This document shows positions 22,945 through 29,451 of a stretch of DNA of 64,000 nt, one piece after another (position 1 is the first letter of the stretch; every line of letters begins with the position of its first letter). The notes under the pieces were generated by a model, which saw only the letters and a program-made list of their open reading frames with translations, searched no databases and was not told the origin of the DNA. The stretch lies in assembly GCA_963665665.1 (NCBI GenBank), contig OY762428.1:4160001-4224000 (forward strand), read 5' to 3'. A program made the translations under genes and the position numbers. Source of the DNA: Candidatus Kapaibacterium sp. (GTDB taxonomy: Bacteria; Bacteroidota; Ignavibacteria; Kapaibacteriales; UBA2268).

Positions 22945-24568
22945 TAACTATTTTGCCGATGCCCTAAAAAAAATGGGCCTTGAGGAAATTCCGGAAATTG
23001 CTTTTGAAACACCCAAAAATGCAGACCACGGTGATCTTTCTACCAATATTGCCATGCAGCTTCCAAAAATGTTGAAGAAACCACCAAGGGCTATTGCCGA
23101 GGAAATATTACAAAATATTGAAGCGGATGATGAAGTAATTGAAAAAATTGATATTGCAGGGCCGGGCTTTATTAATATTAAATTCACCCCGAAATATTAT
23201 TCCGCTGAATTGGAAGCTATCCTGAATAAGGCTGCTGATTATGGCAGGCAGGATGTCGGTAAAGGCAAAAAGACTATTGTTGAGTATGTTAGTGTTAATC
23301 CAACAGGACTCTTACACCTTGGTCACGGAAGAAATGCAGCTATAGGAGATACTGTATCAAACCTTTATGACTGGATGGGTTATGACGTAACAAGGGAATA
23401 TTATTTCAACAATGCCGGCAACCAGATGAACAATCTGGCCAAATCAATTTATGCCAGGTATATGCAAATAATCGACAGCCCTGAATTCCCATTTCCCGAG
23501 GACGGATACCACGGAGACTATATCAAAACAATCGCACAGGATATTGTTGATATAGAAAGTGATAAATATATAGCCGGAAGCGACGATGATATTGCTGCAC
23601 TGAGAAAAGCCGGGGAACTTTGGGCTTTTGATAAAATAAAAGCTACCCTTGGCAGGATGAATATCAATCAGGATAATTATTTCAACGAGGATTCACTCTA
23701 CTCGGACGGAAAAATTGAAAATATTATCAACGAGTTTAAAAACAAGGGCCTTGCTTATGAAAAAGACGATGCCCTGTGGCTTAAACTTAGCGAAATGGGA
23801 CTTCAGGACGACAGGGTGATTGTAAAATCAACAGGCGAACCAACATACCGCCTTCCGGATATGGCATACCACAGGGAGAAATTCGAACGCGGTTTTGACG
23901 TAATAGTCGATCTTTTCGGCTCGGATCATATTGCTACAATTCCTGATGTATTAACCGGTGTGAAATCACTGGGATATGATACTGATAAAGTTAAAGTGCT
24001 TATTCACCAGTTTGTAACTTTGATGGAAAACGGCGAGCAGGTGAAAATGAGTAAACGTACCGGTAAGAATTACACTCTTGACGATCTGCTGGATGAAGTA
24101 GGGGAGGATGTTGTTCGATTCTTCCTTATAATGCGCGGTATTAATACTCATCTGGAATTCGACCTTGACCTGGCAAAAGAACAAAGCGATAAAAACCCGG
24201 TATTTTATCTGCAATATGCACATGCTCGACTTTGTTCGATTTTTGACAACGCAATCGATAAAGATATAAATATTGATGATAAAGCTGATCTGACACTGTT
24301 AGTTGACAAATCGGAAATCAGCCTGATAAAAACGTTAATGAAGTTTCCTGACTATATTCGTCTGTCCTGCGACAAAGGCGAGCCAATGATACTTGCGGAA
24401 TATCTAAGGGATCTTGCCGCAGCTTTCCATGTATTTTATCATAACTGCCGGATTATCGGTTCTGAAGAAAAATTGATGCAGGCAAGGTTCAAATTGGCCG
24501 CAGCTACAAAGATAACATTGAAAAACGGACTTGATATTTTAGGTGTTTCTTCACCCGAGAGAATGTAA
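22925..24568 (+). CDS. argS: arginyl-tRNA synthetase
   Basis: HGDLSTNIA, AGPGFIN, VEYVSVNPTG.LHLGHGR (HIGH), KMSKR, YLQYAHAR, C-terminal PERM. Confidence 0.98.
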   Translation: MKYRNISNYFADALKKMGLEEIPEIAFETPKNADHGDLSTNIAMQLPKMLKKPPRAIAEEILQNIEADDEVIEKIDIAGPGFINIKFTPKYYSAELEAILNKAADYGRQDVGKGKKTIVEYVSVNPTGLLHLGHGRNAAIGDTVSNLYDWMGYDVTREYYFNNAGNQMNNLAKSIYARYMQIIDSPEFPFPEDGYHGDYIKTIAQDIVDIESDKYIAGSDDDIAALRKAGELWAFDKIKATLGRMNINQDNYFNEDSLYSDGKIENIINEFKNKGLAYEKDDALWLKLSEMGLQDDRVIVKSTGEPTYRLPDMAYHREKFERGFDVIVDLFGSDHIATIPDVLTGVKSLGYDTDKVKVLIHQFVTLMENGEQVKMSKRTGKNYTLDDLLDEVGEDVVRFFLIMRGINTHLEFDLDLAKEQSDKNPVFYLQYAHARLCSIFDNAIDKDINIDDKADLTLLVDKSEISLIKTLMKFPDYIRLSCDKGEPMILAEYLRDLAAAFHVFYHNCRIIGSEEKLMQARFKLAAATKITLKNGLDILGVSSPERM

Positions 24569-24656
24569 TTGTAGGGAAGATGTTAGCGATACTTCTTTTT
24601 TCTGATTCCTGAATAAAAGCAGACCTTTCCCATGATGAAATGATATTTATGAAAAC

Positions 24657-24688
24657 TGCTCGTTGGGATATTCGTATCCCGACGAGTT
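24657..24688. repeat. REP-like imperfect palindrome downstream of argS
   Basis: CTCGTTGGGATA-TTCG-TATCCCGACGAG hairpin. Confidence 0.5.
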
Positions 24689-24916
24689 GTGTTGAAAGGG
24701 TTTTTCAGAATTTTTCTTTCGGATGAGATAACCGAAACCTCATTCTGAAGGAGCTTGCGATAGAGTATAATGACAGTAGTCCTGATCCGTTAATAAAAAA
24801 ATCAAATGGTTATGAGGATAAGCCCGTAAATAAATATGTCGGTTATAATCATAATTATACCACAGAATTATATCTAAACTTTTAAATATTATCTGGTTTG
24901 GGAGGGGGCAGAAGGA

Positions 24917-25699
24917 ATTGCCGCCTTGTCTATAGGCATTGATGCCTTGGCCGGAGTTATTGCTGCCTTGGTCCAAATCAAAGCAAGAAAACCACCCCTG
25001 TATTCCCCTCCTACTTTAGGAGGGGATAAGAAGTTAAATATCATAGAATTAACTCCCCCTCCTTCCGAAGGATGCGACCGGGGTGAGGTAGGAGGGGGCG
25101 GAAGCAAAGCACCAATGTTTGATGATATTTCCGCCTTGTTTCGAAGCAAAGAAAGAAAACCACCCCTGTATTCCCCTCCTACATTAGGAGGGGATAAGAA
25201 ATTAAATATCATAAGATTAACTCCCCCTCCTTCCGAAGGATGCGACCGGGGTGAGGTAGGAGGGGTCAGAAGCAAAGAACCAAAGTTTTAACCTATTGCT
25301 GCTTTATTCTTCTTCAAAGCCCTCACCTTCGGGGAGGGTTTGGGAGGGGTCAGGAATATTGCTGCCTTGGTTGAAGTTATTGACGCCTTGGTCGGAGTCA
25401 TTGCCGCCTTGTTTGAAGATAATGAACTCTTGGTCGACACTATTGCAGCAATGTTTTGCTTTATTGATGCCTTGGTCGAAGTTATTGACGCCTTGGTCGG
25501 AGTTATTGATGCCTTGGTCGGAGTTATTGACGCCTTGGTTGAAGTCATTGATGCCTTGGTTGAAGTCATTGACGCCTTGGTTGAAGTCATTGCCGCCTTG
25601 TTTGAAGATAATGATGCCTTGGTCGGAGTCATTGACGCCTTGGTCGGAGTCATTGATGCCTTGGTTGAAGGCATTGAACTCTTGGTCGGAGGCAAAGAA
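24917..25699 (+). repeat. 21-bp tandem repeat array A (consensus ~GCCTTGGT(C/T)G(G/A)AGT(C/T)ATTGA(C/T)), interrupted by REP-like hairpins
   Basis: GCCTTG-type unit starts at 24923, 24944, 24965, 25133, 25301, then every 21 bp from 25364 to 25679 (16 consecutive units). Confidence 0.93.
24986..25278. repeat. two near-identical ~125-bp REP-like hairpin cassettes, 168 bp apart
   Basis: ACCACCCCTGTATTCCCCTCCTAC.TTAGGAGGGGA...CTCCCCCTCCTTCCGAAGGATGCGACCGGGGTGAGGTAGGAGGGG starts at 24991 and 25159. Confidence 0.9.
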
Positions 25700-25702
25700 C
25701 AT

Positions 25703-25997
25703 GTTCAGTAAGATCAACCAAGCGTTCAGTAAGATCAACCAAGCGTTCAGTAAGATCAACCAAGCGTTCAGTAAGGTCAAACAAGTGTTCAGTAAGATCA
25801 ACCAAGCGTTCAGTAAAGCCAACCAAGTGTTCAGTAAAGCCAACCAAGTGTTCAGTAAAGCCAACCAAGTGTTCAGTAAAGCCAACCAAGTGTTCAGTAA
25901 GGTCAACCAAGTGTTCAGTAAAGCCAACCAAGTGTTCAATGAGGCCAAATTTCACTACATTAAGGCCAAACAATGATTCAATAACTCCGGCCAAGGC
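25703..25997 (+). repeat. 21-bp tandem repeat array B (GTTCAGTAA(GAT/AGC)CAACCAAG(C/T)); 11 clean units plus a degenerate tail; inverted homologue of array A
   Basis: GTTCAGTAA at 25703 + 21n up to 25913; degenerate in-phase units continue past 26000. Confidence 0.93.
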
Positions 25998-26175
25998 GGT
26001 ATAAAGCCCTGCCAACAAAACATTTAGCCCAAACATTTGGATTCTGGTTCAAAACAGCGTTGAATTAAGGAAATTATCCGGTTCATTGAAACCACAGGAT
26101 AGGGAATTAAGGCCGGCGGCCGCTTCATTGGGGTGGAAGAACGGGTAAACTGAGCAAAAGAATGAGGTGTTATGT

Positions 26176-26285
26176 TGTCATTCCCCGACACGTCGGGGCA
26201 GGCTTCCGGAGCTTGCGACCGAAGAATCCATCTTTCTTGCGGATAATTTATGAAGAATGGATCCTTCGCTTCGCTCAGGATGACA
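26176..26285. repeat. REP-like palindromic element (TGTCAT...ATGACA) with a nested short palindrome
   Basis: Ends TGTCATT and GGATCCTTCGCTTCGCTCAGGATGACA; contains CCCCGACACGTCGGGG. Confidence 0.7.
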
Positions 26286-26309
26286 TGGAGTTTTACCATC
26301 GTCAAGTTC

Positions 26310-26535
26310 AATAGCCACGTGCTTTAGCTCGTGGATAAAGATGCAAGGTGCGGAGGCAAAGAAAAAGAATCCACCCCAGCCTGTCCCGACGTGTCGGGAA
26401 CTCGCTGCGCTCGCCACCCCTCCACGAGGGGAATTTTTCCGGAAATCCACCCCCGCCCTTTCCCGACTCGTCGGCGCCAGCGTGGGACAGGTGGCTTCTT
26501 CCAATTGTTAATTCTTAATTGTCAATTATCAATTA
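26310..26535. repeat. cluster of further short palindromes and AATT-based heptamer repeats
   Basis: CCACGTGCTTTAGCTCGTGG; CCCGACGTGTCGGG; CCCCTCCACGAGGGG; CAATTGT-TAATTCT-TAATTGT-CAATTAT-CAATT at ~26502-26534. Confidence 0.6.
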
Positions 26536-26550
26536 AGAAAACATTCTTTC

Positions 26551-29451
26551 CTACTTTATTGTAATTTCATCTGCAAAAATCCAGGCAAAACCATCGGGGC
26601 CGTGTCCGATGTGCCATTCAGGCAGAGCTCCCCGGCATTTAGCAATAACTTTAACATACCTGGCATTACGCGGGCTGAAGTTTTTAGTAATTTCTTTTGT
26701 TTCAGCAGAATTTCTTTCAATTAGTTCAATCTTTTCCGAAGCAAGCTTTTTAAATTCTTTGCCATCTGCTGATATGAAGTATTCCACTTCTGTCGGATAC
26801 ATTATCCAGCTTCTCTGGTCGCTAAGGAATCCTGTGCTGATTGTTGTTATTTCCCTGACACTTCCAAGATCGACAGTAGCATCCAGGTCTTTGTTTTCAT
26901 ATCCCTGCCAAACATTTGTTTTAAAATCATTGCTACCCTTTATACCGTCAATCAATGCATTGTCGCCTCCGGCATTGTATTGATTGGCATATTGGGTTTC
27001 CAGTTTAATTGACAGGTTCGGATCAATCTTCCTGAATGTTGTTTCCAGAACCGGGCTTTTTTCGTTGCCCTTTTGAGAATAAACTTTCAGATCGGCGTCA
27101 TCTGATATATAAAAAGGAACGGAATAATCTTTATATTCGGAATTATTAAGCGAGTAATATGTTTTTACATTATCATCAATATTTCCAAGGCTTACCAGCG
27201 TACTGTCGCGAAAAGAAAGCTCGCCGGTTTTAACAAATGAAGGAGGGACGATTTGGTAGTCGTCGATTGAAGTCGAGGGAATATTATCATCATGGCTTCC
27301 CCAATAGGTAGGTTTATTTGTCATTGAAAATTCAAGTTTACCGCCTTTCATAATATCGCCGTGTTTTATGAAGGAATAAGGATAATCCTTTCCATTCAAT
27401 TTAACAGATTCAATATATAGATTATTTTCAGAAAGGTTTTTGGCATTAATCCTGAAGGTTTTGCCGCTTTCAAGATTGATAACCGCGCTGCTAACCTGCG
27501 GCGCCCCGATAACATACTCATCCGAACCCGGGGTAACGGGATAAAATCCAATGGCCGAAAAAATATACCAGGCGCTCATCTGGCCGCAATCTTCATTGCC
27601 GGAAATGCCGTCGGGAGAGTTGTTGTAAAGTTCCGTGCAAATTTGCCTTACCAGCTTTTGGGTTTTGTGCGGTTTGTTGATAAAATTGTAGAGATAAGCA
27701 ATATGATGGCTTGGTTCGTTCCCGTGAGCATACTGTCCGATTAAACCGGAAATATCCGATTGGTGCCTTCCGGAGGTCTCTTCATTAGCAGAGAAAAGAG
27801 CATCAAGCTGCTTTTCCATAACATCTTTGCCGCCAATCAACCCGATGAACCCCGAAATATCCTGCGGTACATAAAAACTATACTGCCAGGAATTGGCCTC
27901 GGTATAGTTGAAGTTCACTTCATAAGGATCGAATGGGCTGAACCATGTATTGCGATATCGCGCGCGCATGAATTTTGTATCGGGATCAAGAATATTTTTA
28001 TAGTTCTGTGCACGTTTTACAAATCTTTGGTAATCAGTTTTATTATTTAATTCTTTAGCTATTTGCGCAATAGTCCAGTCGTCATAGGCATATTCAAGGG
28101 TTTTGGAAACCGATTCGGATTCCTCCTCCATCGGTATATAACCGAATTCTTTATATCCCTTCAACCCAAGATGATCCTGCATTGCACTGTGCTTCATTGC
28201 TTTGAAAGCTTCATTGGCATCATAATCGCGGATTCCTTTGATATAGGCATCTGAAATCACGGAAACGCCGTGATAGCCAATCATACATCCCGTGTAGCAA
28301 GCCGAAAGATCCCAGATGGGCATGATTCCGCCTTCGTTATATTTGGCAATCAAAGTTTTAATAAAATCATTCGTTCTTTCCTGTTCAATAATAGTAAACA
28401 GCGGGTGGCTGGCCCTGTAAGTATCCCAAAGTGAGAAAACAGTATAATAATTGAAATCAGAATTTTTATAAATTTTCAGATCAATTCCGCGATAAGAACC
28501 GTCAACATCCTGGTAAAGATTGGGTGCCAGTACGCTATGATATAAAGCTGTGTAGAATACTTCCTTTTCCTCGCGGATTTTAGTTTCTATCTCAATTTTT
28601 CTAAGCTGGCTGTTCCATATTTTCCGGGCATTTTCACGGACATCGGCAAAAGTTTTACCATGGATTTCAGCCTGGTAATTTGCTTTAGCTCCGGCAGCGC
28701 TTACCGGAGATATTGCGATATAAACATTAAGTTCTGCGCTTTCTTTATCGAATGTAAAAGCAGCCTTAGTATTTTTTTCAGCGCCTTCAGGTTTATAATA
28801 TTCAGTATTGATAATCGGCTTCGAGAATTTAATATAAAAGAAAAGTCTCTGATCATTTGCCCAGGCTCTTGAGCGTCGGAGTCCGGTAATTTCAGTATCG
28901 GAGATTTTATTTATTTCACAGTCAAGTAATCTGTCCCTGTGTTCCAGGTCAAGGATAACTACCTGCCCGGCGTTTTCCGGGTAAGTATATCTGTGAATTC
29001 CGCATCTCGGCGTAGTTGTCAGTTCAACTTTTATTTTGCTGTCTTCAAGCATAACAGAGTAATAACCCGGTGATGCAGTTTCATTTTTATGGCTGAATTT
29101 TGAGCAATAACCGATATTACCATCAGCCCCGTTATTGAAAACCACTTTATTTGTGGGCATAAGCAGGATATCACCATAATCCGAGCAGCCAGTACCGCTC
29201 AGGTGGGTATGGGTAAAACCATAAACAACGCTGTCCGAATAATGATAGCCGGAGCAGCCGTCCCAGCCTTCAAGCCGGGTATCGGGGCTAAGCTGCATCA
29301 TGCCGAATGGCAGAGTCGGCCCGGGGAAAGTATGCCCGTGTCCTCCCGTTCCAATAAACGGATTAACATACTCAGTCAGGTCATCCCGGCCAGAAAGAAC
29401 TTTTGACGAAAAAAGTAAACTGATCATTAAAAGTAGAAATATCTTTTTCAT
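26551..29451 (-). CDS. GH92 alpha-1,2-mannosidase with C-terminal Fn3-like and F5/8-type domains
   Basis: YVNPFIGT.GHGHTFPG, HLSGTGCSDYGD, FSLWDTYRA, HGNEPSHH, GNEDCGQMSAWY; signal-peptide start at ATG 29451. Confidence 0.95.
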   Translation of the reverse strand: MKKIFLLLMISLLFSSKVLSGRDDLTEYVNPFIGTGGHGHTFPGPTLPFGMMQLSPDTRLEGWDGCSGYHYSDSVVYGFTHTHLSGTGCSDYGDILLMPTNKVVFNNGADGNIGYCSKFSHKNETASPGYYSVMLEDSKIKVELTTTPRCGIHRYTYPENAGQVVILDLEHRDRLLDCEINKISDTEITGLRRSRAWANDQRLFFYIKFSKPIINTEYYKPEGAEKNTKAAFTFDKESAELNVYIAISPVSAAGAKANYQAEIHGKTFADVRENARKIWNSQLRKIEIETKIREEKEVFYTALYHSVLAPNLYQDVDGSYRGIDLKIYKNSDFNYYTVFSLWDTYRASHPLFTIIEQERTNDFIKTLIAKYNEGGIMPIWDLSACYTGCMIGYHGVSVISDAYIKGIRDYDANEAFKAMKHSAMQDHLGLKGYKEFGYIPMEEESESVSKTLEYAYDDWTIAQIAKELNNKTDYQRFVKRAQNYKNILDPDTKFMRARYRNTWFSPFDPYEVNFNYTEANSWQYSFYVPQDISGFIGLIGGKDVMEKQLDALFSANEETSGRHQSDISGLIGQYAHGNEPSHHIAYLYNFINKPHKTQKLVRQICTELYNNSPDGISGNEDCGQMSAWYIFSAIGFYPVTPGSDEYVIGAPQVSSAVINLESGKTFRINAKNLSENNLYIESVKLNGKDYPYSFIKHGDIMKGGKLEFSMTNKPTYWGSHDDNIPSTSIDDYQIVPPSFVKTGELSFRDSTLVSLGNIDDNVKTYYSLNNSEYKDYSVPFYISDDADLKVYSQKGNEKSPVLETTFRKIDPNLSIKLETQYANQYNAGGDNALIDGIKGSNDFKTNVWQGYENKDLDATVDLGSVREITTISTGFLSDQRSWIMYPTEVEYFISADGKEFKKLASEKIELIERNSAETKEITKNFSPRNARYVKVIAKCRGALPEWHIGHGPDGFAWIFADEITIK

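Follow-up and report, generated by a model that had tools for sequence, protein, structure and literature searches.

A dispersed composite repeat with two inverted arrays of 21-bp units in a Candidatus Kapaibacterium genome

The gap between the convergent genes argS and GH92 of Candidatus Kapaibacterium sp. (assembly GCA_963665665.1) holds two mutually inverted arrays of 21-bp units. Are these arrays a property of this gene pair, do they encode a protein, and what could have placed two versions of one unit head to head? The locus lies within the window, a stretch of 64,000 nucleotides (contig OY762428.1, positions 4,160,001 to 4,224,000 of the forward strand), to which all coordinates below refer.

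Architecture of the element

Domain matches confirm that the flanking ORFs are argS (Arg_tRNA_synt_N, tRNA-synt_1d and DALR_1) and GH92 (Glyco_hydro_92, 609 bits) and that they converge, on a gap of 1,982 nt. A first-pass annotation, made from the sequence alone, described the two arrays as filling this gap. Tandem Repeats Finder (TRF) recovers both of them, array A at 25357–25677 (period 21, 15.3 copies, 76% matches) and array B at 25702–25938 (period 21, 11.3 copies, 93% matches), but the arrays cover only ~580 nt, whereas the repeated composite to which they belong extends over ~24898–26500. The limits of the composite are apparent from the BLAST depth of 24301–26900 against its own genome, which rises from 0–1 to 29–118 at ~24901 and is at most 6 beyond ~26500.

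The element (24898–26500) is oriented from its A arm to its B arm, which places it and its parts on the plus strand here. The left edge (24898–24957) consists of A-type 21-bp units in the phase of array A and holds the left arm (24944–24962) of a 19-nt inverted pair. It is followed at 24958–25288 by two copies of a 168-bp (8 × 21) higher-order unit, also called by TRF (period 168, 2.0 copies, 90% matches), each made of a 126-nt module rich in GC hairpins, present 48 times in the genome, and two A-type units. Next, a 42-nt (2 × 21) GC-rich hairpin module (25306–25347; stem-loop at ~25316–25341) is set within an A-type unit; its motif occurs 85 times in the genome, mainly inside A-type arrays. 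Array A proper (25357–25699) comprises about 16 units with a conserved core, CTTG[GT]T, as defined by a per-position profile of 276 canonical units. It meets array B, its inverted homologue, at a 10-bp palindrome (25697–25706) that yields an ATG on each strand, with GGAGG 8 nt upstream of the plus-strand ATG. By unit listing and count, array B contains 12 units (25701–25952). Degenerate B units had been traced to ~26160, but by eye they are visible only to about 26055.

Beyond array B lies a conserved unique right flank (25953–26180), in which most columns of an alignment of 41 copies are at least 90% conserved. Its first ~5 units keep the B phase and include the right arm of the 19-nt pair (25979–25997). 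The two arms of this pair are exact inverted copies over all 19 nt, as first reported. Rfam contains no family that matches at its gathering score; the weak hit to RAGATH-25 at 26048–26101 reaches 18.3 bits against a threshold of 49 (E = 0.25). The element ends in a mosaic of small palindromic modules (26170–26500), which differ in order and number among copies and here include an inverted pair at 26184–26204 and 26378–26398.

Several other details of the first-pass annotation hold as well. The four open frames through the arrays (25296–25976 and 25340–25711 on the plus strand, 25304–25948 and 25650–26036 on the minus strand) are present, as are their mirrored translations (LVEVIDA/LVGVIDA on plus, LVDLTER/LVGFTEH on minus). 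The units of period 21 are contiguous and lack spacers; thus, the locus is not a CRISPR array, in agreement with the earlier view.

No short-read contig from two independent studies crosses the arrays; the contigs end within the repeats, and the unit number given here is that of the assembly. This absence of a spanning contig for arrays A and B would be expected if the assembler had created the arrays or their inverted layout, a scenario that we consider extremely improbable. Contigs from both studies lead out of argS and enter the element's left edge at a common site, one matching 24300–24982 with 0 differences and the other 24300–25005 with 14 differences. A strain with about 98% identity is represented in two studies. 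Moreover, the architecture, junction and flank recur at 26–41 loci with individual unit patterns and numbers, and other assemblies contain related arrays.

Dispersal and location in the genome

The argS/GH92 arrays are one of about 57 dispersed copies of a ~1.6-kb repeat and are not specific to the gene pair, contrary to their original description as a feature of this gap. BLAST with two full copies as queries, that from argS/GH92 and one with an AT-rich spacer between its arms, returned 65 intervals of at least 300 bp at 57 loci, amounting to 97,418 bp or 1.8% of the 5.46-Mb genome. Period 21 accounts for 288 of the 861 rows of a genome-wide TRF run, and the longer periods are mostly multiples of 21. 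The right flank is common to 41 copies over ~550 bp, a 14-nt stretch spanning the junction is present in 26, and the arrays contain 7–21 units (36 arrays).

The location of the copies is not uniform. With ORFs of at least 150 aa as proxies for genes rather than gene calls, and with intervals that are not independent events, 27 of the 65 element intervals fall in convergent gaps, compared with 543 of 3469 ORF pairs (15.7%; binomial p = 5e-7). The enrichment between convergent genes that had been suggested is therefore found, but not the polarity that was to accompany it. The 41 copies that could be oriented divide into 16 in convergent gaps, 11 and 10 in co-directional gaps in either orientation and 4 in divergent gaps, so that the orientation of the element relative to its neighbouring ORFs is random. 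It follows that presenting the same sense to read-through from each flanking gene is not a property of the family. Nor is there a significant replication-strand bias. With fork direction taken from GC skew, which locates the origin at around 1.8 Mb and the terminus at around 5.1 Mb, 25 of 40 copies point the same way as the fork (p = 0.15).

The A-sense copy of the 19-nt inverted pair occurs at just 3 of 41 loci, so the pair is no conserved terminal repeat, and we rejected it as the termini of the element. Terminal inverted repeats, empty sites and a linked transposase were not found at the copies, and without empty sites no target-site duplications were identified; it is therefore dispersal alone that suggests mobility. 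The genome encodes one RAYT-like Y1 transposase (Y1_Tnp, 75.7 bits); the REP family flanking its gene is also found in some of the element mosaics. The 21-bp units do not flank this gene, and nothing was found to link it to the arrays. Other REP-like hairpins surround the element copies. Clustering of the genes neighbouring the 57 loci gave only generic families, none of them specific to the element; by eye, members of the largest share a common tail resembling a secretion C-terminal tail.

The 21-bp register

A single register extends through the element. Of 372 core motifs, 351 are in phase with one another at distances of up to 860 nt from the junction, and in the argS/GH92 copy all 17 share one phase modulo 21 out to 734 nt. 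The same register runs across both the 42-nt hairpin module and the 126-nt module. In 13 spacer-type loci the arms do not abut but are separated by a 546-nt (26 × 21) AT-rich block with a GC content of 9–16% and no stop-to-stop frame longer than 45 aa. The gap between the arms of these loci is 582 nt in ten cases and 666, 708 and 792 nt in the others, each exceeding a multiple of 21 by 36, and the A-arm and far-arm registers are offset by 15 modulo 21 in 13 of 13, as in the abutting loci. The idea of 21 bp as a constrained register is thus well supported, both by the cores and by the spacer loci.

Were the 42-, 126- and 546-nt modules independent insertions, a phase lock over all three would have a probability of about 1e-4. 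A purely selfish model does not predict it; what it requires is either that the lattice gave rise to all the modules in situ or that the register is under selection. The spacer bears on this choice, because it has a lag-21 signal of its own (autocorrelation 0.523, against a maximum of 0.467 in 500 shuffles), so that the phase lock, instead of being selected, may descend from a single ancestral array. In the best explanation, to which as a whole we give about an even chance, the AT-rich block would itself be a decayed array of 26 units.

Selection on the register would instead suit a phased DNA platform, in which a core repeated every 21 bp presents one face of the helix to a protein or superstructure, with opposite polarity in each arm. 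The AT-rich block could then serve as a centre of unwinding or bending, comparable to iteron- or centromere-like arrays, or to gyrase- or IHF-binding BIMEs between convergent genes. We consider this possible, if unlikely. The register of the cores and the constant offset in the spacer loci are what such a platform would require, and within the unit the core is invariant while the remaining positions vary. Of 129 other genomes of the family, 12 contain arrays in which this core recurs every 21 bp, and one array type is 73–85% identical across genera. The element is in excess between convergent ORFs, a location also reported for BIME/REP elements (PMC3184786). However, a backwards control pattern also matches several genomes, so that the matches concern 21-bp arrays in general and not this core alone. 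A 10–11-bp sub-period is missing from five of six unit types (shuffle P 0.16–0.97), the unrelated C type alone giving 0.02; a half-period of this kind had been seen by eye and is refuted by the shuffles for those five. Neither a candidate binding protein nor a neighbour family specific to the element was found, about 57 origin- or centromere-like sites per chromosome would lack precedent, and the spacer's own periodicity again allows inheritance in place of selection.

Relationship between the two arms

The match of 14 of 21 positions originally quoted between one A unit and the reverse complement of one B unit is borne out for those units. Between genome-wide consensus units the figure is 13/21, compared with 9–10 in direct orientation. 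When each of 20,000 shuffles was scored by its best match over all rotations on both strands, a score of at least 13 had P = 0.017 and of at least 14 P = 0.003; the similarity of the arms is thus better than that of shuffled controls. Two units are identical in 22% of cases when adjacent, in 15% when farther apart in the same array and in 4.8% when taken from different arrays.

A single strand spanning both arms is predicted to fold into a long hairpin of −190.5 kcal/mol on the plus strand (z = −10.65) and −182.9 kcal/mol on the minus strand (z = −9.99). The types of the two arms co-vary, as arms swapped between loci fold at −90.9 kcal/mol when of the same type and −83.1 kcal/mol when of different types (36 loci), and the complementary core position is correlated between arms (Spearman 0.54, n = 35). 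Cognate arms, at −89.5 kcal/mol, fold no better than same-type non-cognate arms; hence, there is no compensation at the level of the locus.

These features bear on whether the element acts as RNA. Read-through from either side would fold the arms into a bidirectional terminator, a 3′-end stabilizer, an RNase III substrate or a source of antisense RNA, as has been proposed for REP, BOX and SPRITE elements. The hairpins on both strands, the covariation of arm types and the convergent-ORF excess, a bias also reported for SPRITE and REP (PMC3184786), all fit such a role. On the other hand, any inverted repeat gives this stability as a by-product, and cognate arms show no compensation at the locus. 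The arms show a 2-nt offset about the junction palindrome, as judged by eye, 25 of the 41 copies lie outside convergent gaps, no Rfam family matches, and terminator-like sites are not in excess (4 found, 2.6 expected). We therefore regard an RNA-level role as rather improbable.

Tests for a protein-coding function

No part of the element has a coding signature. Variation in the right flank and in the B units lacks 3-periodicity. In the best frame of the A units the entropies of the three codon positions are 0.37, 0.66 and 0.58, the second being the most variable, and TAA appears in this frame in 7 of 276 units. Among 24 rare single-step unit variants, synonymous changes are in excess in no frame; the ATG frame has 3 synonymous, 19 non-synonymous and 2 stop changes, where 24.6% synonymous would be expected. 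By eye, stop-bearing unit variants stand ahead of many hairpin modules.

The proposal to be weighed is that one arm frame is translated, making the copies a large paralogous family of genes for variable, coiled-coil-like heptad-repeat micro-proteins. Its candidates are the plus-strand frame from the junction ATG, (F-S-K-V/I-N-Q-V/A)n of 60–140 aa, and the convergent frames of L-V-x-x-I-D type. The junction start carries ATG with GGAGG 8 nt ahead of it in 26 of 41 copies, ATG only in 6 and no in-frame ATG in 9. Shine-Dalgarno motifs are enriched before long ORFs in this genome (GGAG, 15.5% versus 3.4%). Of the 26 frames, 21 end at a conserved stop just past the array, 3 a further 51 nt on and 2 prematurely. 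In Pfam the frame gives weak matches to 51 families of coiled-coil type, the best being Alanine_zipper at 25.2 bits with a cut-off of 23.1, and hydrophobic residues hold the same heptad positions across unit variants. The codon-usage score is highest for the convergent frames listed earlier (A 0.23, B 0.31; real-gene mean 0.27), although over seven codons it is very noisy by calibration. A 78-aa ORF covering an entire A-like array in genome G468 also speaks for translation.

Against this stands the absence of a coding-type substitution pattern in any frame, which gives the coiled-coil micro-gene first suggested no support. In addition, 15 of 41 copies lack the ATG with GGAGG, units with an in-frame TAA and other stop-bearing variants occur, and the lattice passes through the AT-rich block, where no frame is open. 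Protein language-model recognition is low (885 and 1071, whereas 2300 is reached by 91 in 100 known families), and a promoter scan showed no excess (5 found, 3.6 expected). A search with the minus-strand frame 25653–26036 through array B had no match. Other protein searches returned P0001 and five further proteins carrying the same modules. Two of the five belong to this genome; the only matches from elsewhere are P0001, on a 1.05-Mb contig, and three proteins on contigs of 51–93 kb. With a start in 26 of 41 copies, no coding-type frame and weak, generic Pfam matches, the element does not look like a protein-coding heptad-repeat gene, and translation in some form appears distinctly unlikely.

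Proposed origin and significance

With about an even chance of being correct, we favor a non-coding, dispersed, foldback-like satellite or mosaic element that has expanded in this lineage, a reading built on the observed composition, dispersal, phase lock, local homogenization and lack of a coding signature. The element would be a lattice of 21-bp units in which the two arms, A on one side and B or its variants on the other, are inverted copies of one ancestral unit and either abut at the short palindrome or flank the 546-bp AT-rich block, as in 13 loci. A single inverted duplication of a tandem array probably produced the arms, before the element began to spread. Whole units would then be gained and lost within each arm by slippage or unequal exchange, so that neighboring units become homogenized while the arms drift apart to 13–14 matches in 21. 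Copies may survive where they are least harmful, downstream of genes, and their persistence there would account for the excess between convergent genes. A single strand over both arms, such as a read-through transcript or a lagging-strand template, could form an imperfect hairpin of ~250 bp with side effects of the REP/BIME kind, for example RNA 3′-end protection, termination or a site for gyrase or another protein.

Some observations count against this reading. The cross-genus identity of the A type is high for neutral satellite DNA, and the 21-bp phase lock holds over three unrelated-looking modules. The junction ATG is preceded at 8 nt by a canonical GGAGG in a genome that uses Shine-Dalgarno sequences, and its frame stops at a conserved site in most copies.

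More speculatively, and with a clearly smaller chance of being true, the phase-locked satellite may represent a new kind of bacterial DNA structure, in which a core placed every two helical turns over 0.5–2 kb, with opposite polarity in the arms, is kept in register by selection even across the hairpin modules and the 546-bp center, in several genera, to organize DNA rather than to encode. Such organization might take the form of a protein filament, a site that handles supercoils or an insulator separating convergent genes. A selected register would point to a DNA-level function with a two-turn ruler in a little-studied lineage, whereas one that is only inherited would offer a clean natural system in which to study concerted evolution and how bacteria tolerate palindromes.

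Related arrays in other genomes

The array type shared between genera is A-type and was found in G468, a genome from another genus of the family. The 78-aa ORF of its A-like array is in the convergent-type frame of the first-pass annotation; the only other ORF of at least 40 aa over this array starts inside it. G468 is also matched by one module of the 26170–26500 mosaic, and genome G470 contains a stretch resembling the 42-nt hairpin module (89% over 35 nt, E = 7.5e-4). A further G468 locus, L030, possibly holds an inverted array pair; its center reads N.

Beyond these, the junction string was absent from the genome and metagenome contigs searched, a degenerate two-unit B pattern was absent from the metagenome and viral contigs searched, and P0001 had no match among the genome contigs searched. 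BLAST gave no match in 40 relatives or across 400 genomes from the class, and 72,556 plasmid and 50,697 phage records likewise yielded none. The literature searched contained no report of such arrays in this lineage. Gene callers turn the arrays into hypothetical proteins (P0001–P0006), and short-read assemblies are interrupted by them; as a result, elements of this kind are both mis-annotated and under-counted.

Comparison with known repeat families

Dispersed intergenic repeats, including REP/BIME, BOX, MIRU and NIME, are already known. What is unusual here is that one repeat family occupies 1.8% of a bacterial chromosome, that its foldback-type inverted arms are made of minisatellite units, that a single 21-bp register passes through all of its heterogeneous parts and that one unit type is conserved between genera.

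Eukaryotic foldback (FB-type) transposons have long inverted arms that are built from tandem sub-repeats and may or may not enclose a central loop. The element has the same organization, with two long inverted tandem-repeat arms that match at 13–14 of 21 positions, form a predicted hairpin and can surround the 546-bp block. Unlike in foldback transposons, the arms are internal and do not form the ends of the repeated DNA, which goes ~550 nt past the B arm as a unique flank on one side only, and neither a transposase nor terminal repeats or target duplications were found. We know of no bacterial member of the foldback type, nor did the literature searched, which was not exhaustive, contain one. 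The element also differs from a MITE, as its ends are a variable mosaic and the 19-nt pair lacks its A-sense arm at most loci.

Iteron-type plasmid origins consist of direct repeats about two helical turns apart beside an AT-rich block. Direct repeats of this spacing next to an AT-rich block are likewise found at 13 loci, but the element differs from iterons in its dozens of chromosomal copies, its up to 21–30 units, its inverted arms and the lack of an adjacent initiator gene or other neighborhood-specific gene family.

The internal module of BOX elements is about 45 bp long. It is therefore longer than the unit described here, and it is direct only and present in few copies, with no inverted second array or phase lock described. 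The likeness to BOX of Streptococcus pneumoniae lies in a modular, non-autonomous, dispersed structure with a tandem internal module of variable copy number, and BOX elements too have predicted RNA folding and in some cases small ORFs (PMC3184786). Similar to the MIRUs of mycobacteria, which form a tandem-repeat family at about 40–50 intergenic loci with frames open through the units and locus-specific copy number (PMC3184786), the element is an interspersed minisatellite of the MIRU/VNTR kind, with 36 arrays of 7–21 units and a flank common to 41 loci. In contrast, MIRUs have units of 40–100 bp, lie inside operons along the direction of transcription and have neither an inverted partner nor a ~1.6-kb composite.

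The BIME/REP clusters of enterobacteria and Pseudomonas resemble the element as high-copy intergenic mosaics whose short palindromic modules differ in order and number. BIMEs, however, are without long 21-bp arrays, inverted arms of 7–21 units and a lattice across all modules. With regard to REP/BIME and RAYT, palindromic modules do flank the arrays, and it is the mosaic REP family rather than the 21-bp units that flanks the Y1_Tnp gene. REPs are biased to gaps between convergent genes, with reported effects on mRNA stability and binding of gyrase and IHF (PMC3184786), and this positional bias of SPRITE and REP is the same as that of the element described here (PMC3184786).

Paired arrays in the argS–GH92 gap

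The paired 21-bp arrays are real and more general than the first-pass annotation could see: they are best read as a lineage-expanded, probably non-coding, foldback-like minisatellite/mosaic element. In Tandem Repeats Finder output, array A spans 25357-25677 (period 21, 15.3 copies, 76% matches) and array B spans 25702-25938 (11.3 copies, 93% matches); a two-copy 168-bp repeat precedes them at 24958-25288. The neighboring ORFs are indeed argS and a GH92 gene with an F5/8 type C domain, in convergent orientation, and the four long open frames with mirrored translations are as that annotation described them.

The inverted homology between the arrays also holds. The A unit and the reverse complement of the B unit originally compared are identical at 14 of 21 positions, and genome-wide consensus units agree at 13 of 21 when inverted versus 9-10 in direct orientation. 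Among 20,000 shuffles, each scored for its best match over all rotations and both strands, similarity this high is rare (P = 0.017 for at least 13 matches and 0.003 for at least 14). The exact 19-nt inverted pair linking 24944-24962 to 25979-25997 was confirmed as well.

The window copy begins at its left edge with A-type units, followed by two 168-bp (8 × 21) higher-order units, each containing one 126-nt hairpin-rich module, and then by a 42-nt GC-rich hairpin module inserted inside a unit. Array A next meets array B at the junction, a 10-bp palindrome (25697-25706) with an ATG on each strand. Beyond array B lie a conserved unique stretch and, at the right end, a mosaic of small palindromic modules whose order differs among copies.

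Several small features accompany the right side. The unique flank carries a small conserved hairpin (26048-26101), whose match to RAGATH-25 in Rfam scores 18.3 bits (E = 0.25), below the gathering score of 49. Positions 26184-26197 and 26385-26398 form micro-hairpins of the CCCGAC-N4-GTCGGG type. Directly after the GH92 stop codon is a 7/14-bp AT-rich tandem repeat (26502-26534), and the same stretch of ~45 nt also follows the element at two other loci.

A dispersed family in one genome

The two-array structure is not peculiar to this gap: the window holds one copy of a dispersed family. The window occupies 4,160,001-4,224,000 of a genome that is a single contig of 5,458,198 bp. Period 21 accounts for 288 of its 861 Tandem Repeats Finder rows, and longer periods are mostly multiples of 21: 42 (83 rows), 63 (56), 84 (33), and 105 and 126 (14 each). 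BLAST of the gap against its own genome places the limits of the repeated DNA at ~24898 and ~26500. With the window copy and one variant copy as queries, BLAST marks 107,905 bp, of which 65 intervals of at least 300 bp cover 97,418 bp (1.8% of the genome) and collapse to 57 loci.

A 14-nt stretch spanning the junction occurs 26 times (12 on the plus and 14 on the minus strand), always flanked by an A-type and a B-type array, one to each side. Searching with an anchor from the end of the B arm gives 41 copies, whose shared right flank of ~550 bp is at least 90% conserved in most columns. Several unit types make up the B arms of different copies, and the junctions are of three kinds. At 13 loci the far arm is of a further unit type, and between it and the A arm lies a conserved block very rich in AT (GC 9-16% per 100 nt). 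The 126-nt module is present in 48 copies and the 42-nt hairpin motif in 85; by eye, a few of the latter lie outside arrays as inverted doublets. The way the copies spread is unusual. In kind, the nearest systems are BIME/REP clusters, BOX elements and MIRUs (PMC3184786).

A common 21-bp register

All parts of the element share one lattice. In the 26 junction-bearing copies, 351 of 372 core motifs (CTTG[GT]T) fall in a single phase modulo 21, a phase that extends up to 860 nt from the junction and across the 42-nt and 126-nt modules. The window copy has all 17 of its motifs in phase, out to 734 nt. Exceptions are one locus where a block is displaced by 12 nt, and a few strays spread over three loci.

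The register persists where the arms are parted. In all 13 spacer-type loci the arms differ by 15 modulo 21, exactly as in the loci where they abut. The core-to-core gaps are 582 nt (10 loci), 666, 708 and 792 nt, each exceeding a multiple of 21 by 36, so that the common spacer contributes 546 nt, or 26 × 21. No reading frame crosses this spacer (longest stop-to-stop 45 aa). Its lag-21 autocorrelation is 0.523, ahead of lags 63, 42, 67 and 84, against a mean over all lags of 0.387 and a maximum of 0.467 across 500 shuffles.

Had the three module types been inserted independently and with arbitrary lengths, all would be multiples of 21 with a probability of ~1e-4. Either every part goes back to a single ancestral lattice with no net indels since, or selection maintains the register. 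Such strictness through heterogeneous modules is unusual.

Arm dynamics and predicted folding

Arrays comprise 7-21 units, with 12-14 in 21 of 36. Adjacent units are identical in 22% of pairs, units at lag 2 in 25%, and units at lags of at least 4 within an array in 15%, compared with 4.8% of pairs drawn from different arrays. The GG versus TT fraction among A-arm cores correlates with the complementary B-arm position (Spearman 0.54, n = 35). On swapping arms among loci, predicted folding energy is -90.9 kcal/mol within a type and -83.1 kcal/mol between types; cognate arms (-89.5 kcal/mol) fold no better than same-type arms. The co-variation by type fits shared ancestry or conversion rather than compensation at the level of the locus. 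The simplest history would be a single inverted duplication of a tandem array, predating dispersal, after which each arm would have been homogenized separately.

As a single strand, 25440-25960 is predicted to form one long imperfect hairpin (-190.5 kcal/mol, z = -10.65, and -182.9 kcal/mol, z = -9.99, on the two strands). In architecture, the nearest known elements are the foldback elements of eukaryotes.

Coding potential

All six frames were considered. In favor of translation, GGAGG lies 8 nt 5′ of the plus-strand junction ATG. The genome uses Shine-Dalgarno sites: the anti-Shine-Dalgarno sequence is present at the 3′ end of the 16S rRNA, and GGAG precedes 15.5% of long ORFs versus 3.4% of random positions. 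Of 26 copies, 21 end the junction-ATG frame at a conserved stop right after the array, three end it 51 nt further on and two end it prematurely. This frame weakly matches 51 Pfam families of coiled-coil type, at best with 25.2 bits against a cut-off of 23.1. Codon-usage scores are highest for the convergent frames of the first-pass annotation (0.23 for A and 0.31 for B, against 0.27 ± 0.12 per 100 codons for real genes), a very noisy measure resting on seven distinct codons.

Variation shows no three-base periodicity in the right flank or the B units; in A units it peaks at the best frame's second codon position, and TAA is present in 7 of the 276 canonical units. The B-type units number 427 (82 distinct), and the 24 rare single-step variants among them give no frame a synonymous excess, a comparison of low power; in the ATG frame three are synonymous, 19 non-synonymous and two stops, with 24.6% expected synonymous. 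The ATG with its GGAGG is absent from 15 of 41 copies, and recognition by a protein language model is low (885 and 1071). Also against coding, the lattice runs through a block without an open frame and the element's orientation is independent of its neighbors. We regard the family as most likely non-coding; translation of some frame is improbable, though a small chance is left to it.

Genomic placement

With ORFs of at least 150 aa as gene proxies, 27 of the 65 intervals lie between convergent, 31 between co-directional and seven between divergent neighbors. The genome-wide convergent share is 15.7% of 3,469 adjacent pairs (p = 5e-7 for the excess), and 16 of 41 oriented copies lie in convergent gaps (p = 2.6e-4). 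The suggested enrichment between convergent genes is therefore borne out, but not the suggested polarity, as the 21 co-directional cases split 11:10. There is no significant bias in replication direction (25 of 40, p = 0.15), and no gene family is specific to the neighborhoods of the loci.

Some neighbors resemble transposases. Three ORFs of identical length (370 aa), insertion-sequence transposase-like and starting at 997182, 2483304 and 136657 of the contig (G000:C1), directly adjoin three array elements, two of which end at one and the same short sequence beside these ORFs. A single RAYT-like Y1 transposase gene (153 aa, Y1_Tnp 75.7 bits) occupies 1489-1950 of the excised locus L016 (G000:C1:1821805-1822266). 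The REP-like hairpin family on both sides of it recurs in several array elements, within their mosaic right flanks.

Occurrence in other genomes

BLAST found no copy of the element in 40 relatives or 400 genomes of the class, most of them fragmented assemblies prone to losing such repeats. Exact or degenerate strings were absent from the genome, metagenome and viral collections, and no plasmid or phage matched. Protein searches retrieved P0001, an ORF bearing the same B-type repeat (1.05-Mb contig; 74% identity across 77% of the query), and three further ORFs, from contigs of 51-93 kb, that bear the same modules as the A side. In public short-read runs from two studies, the element is present at this same argS-adjoining site.

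The bare core at 21-bp spacing occurs in 13 of 130 genomes of the family, the own genome included (829 matches there, 20 in G468, seven in G470, three in G379 and one in each remaining genome); a backwards control pattern likewise matched in several genomes. G468, a complete genome of another genus, has one core array in a convergent-ORF gap beside REP-like hairpins. This array aligns to the A arrays described here with 85% identity across 82 nt and 73% across 172 nt (lowest E 6e-23). Apart from it, G468 shares only one generic palindromic module and is without B arm, junction or unique flank. That one unit type is conserved across genera is unusual.

G468 also has 21-bp arrays of its own, often two different ones side by side (L029:2263-2576, L030:2140-2638 and L032:1708-2911, in excised loci), with unit sequences mostly unlike those described here except for the shared short core. 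One locus there may hold an inverted array pair; its center reads N.

A second dispersed family of paired 21-bp arrays is present in the window-bearing genome, outside the window (G000:C1:4735815-4736350 and 3994230-3994700), with two direct arrays of different unit types and conserved flanks. Further copies are without the first array and the ATG. The copy at 4735815-4736350 has an in-frame stop within the first array, and in that at 3994230-3994700 an ORF has its ATG where the array starts and its stop where the array ends.
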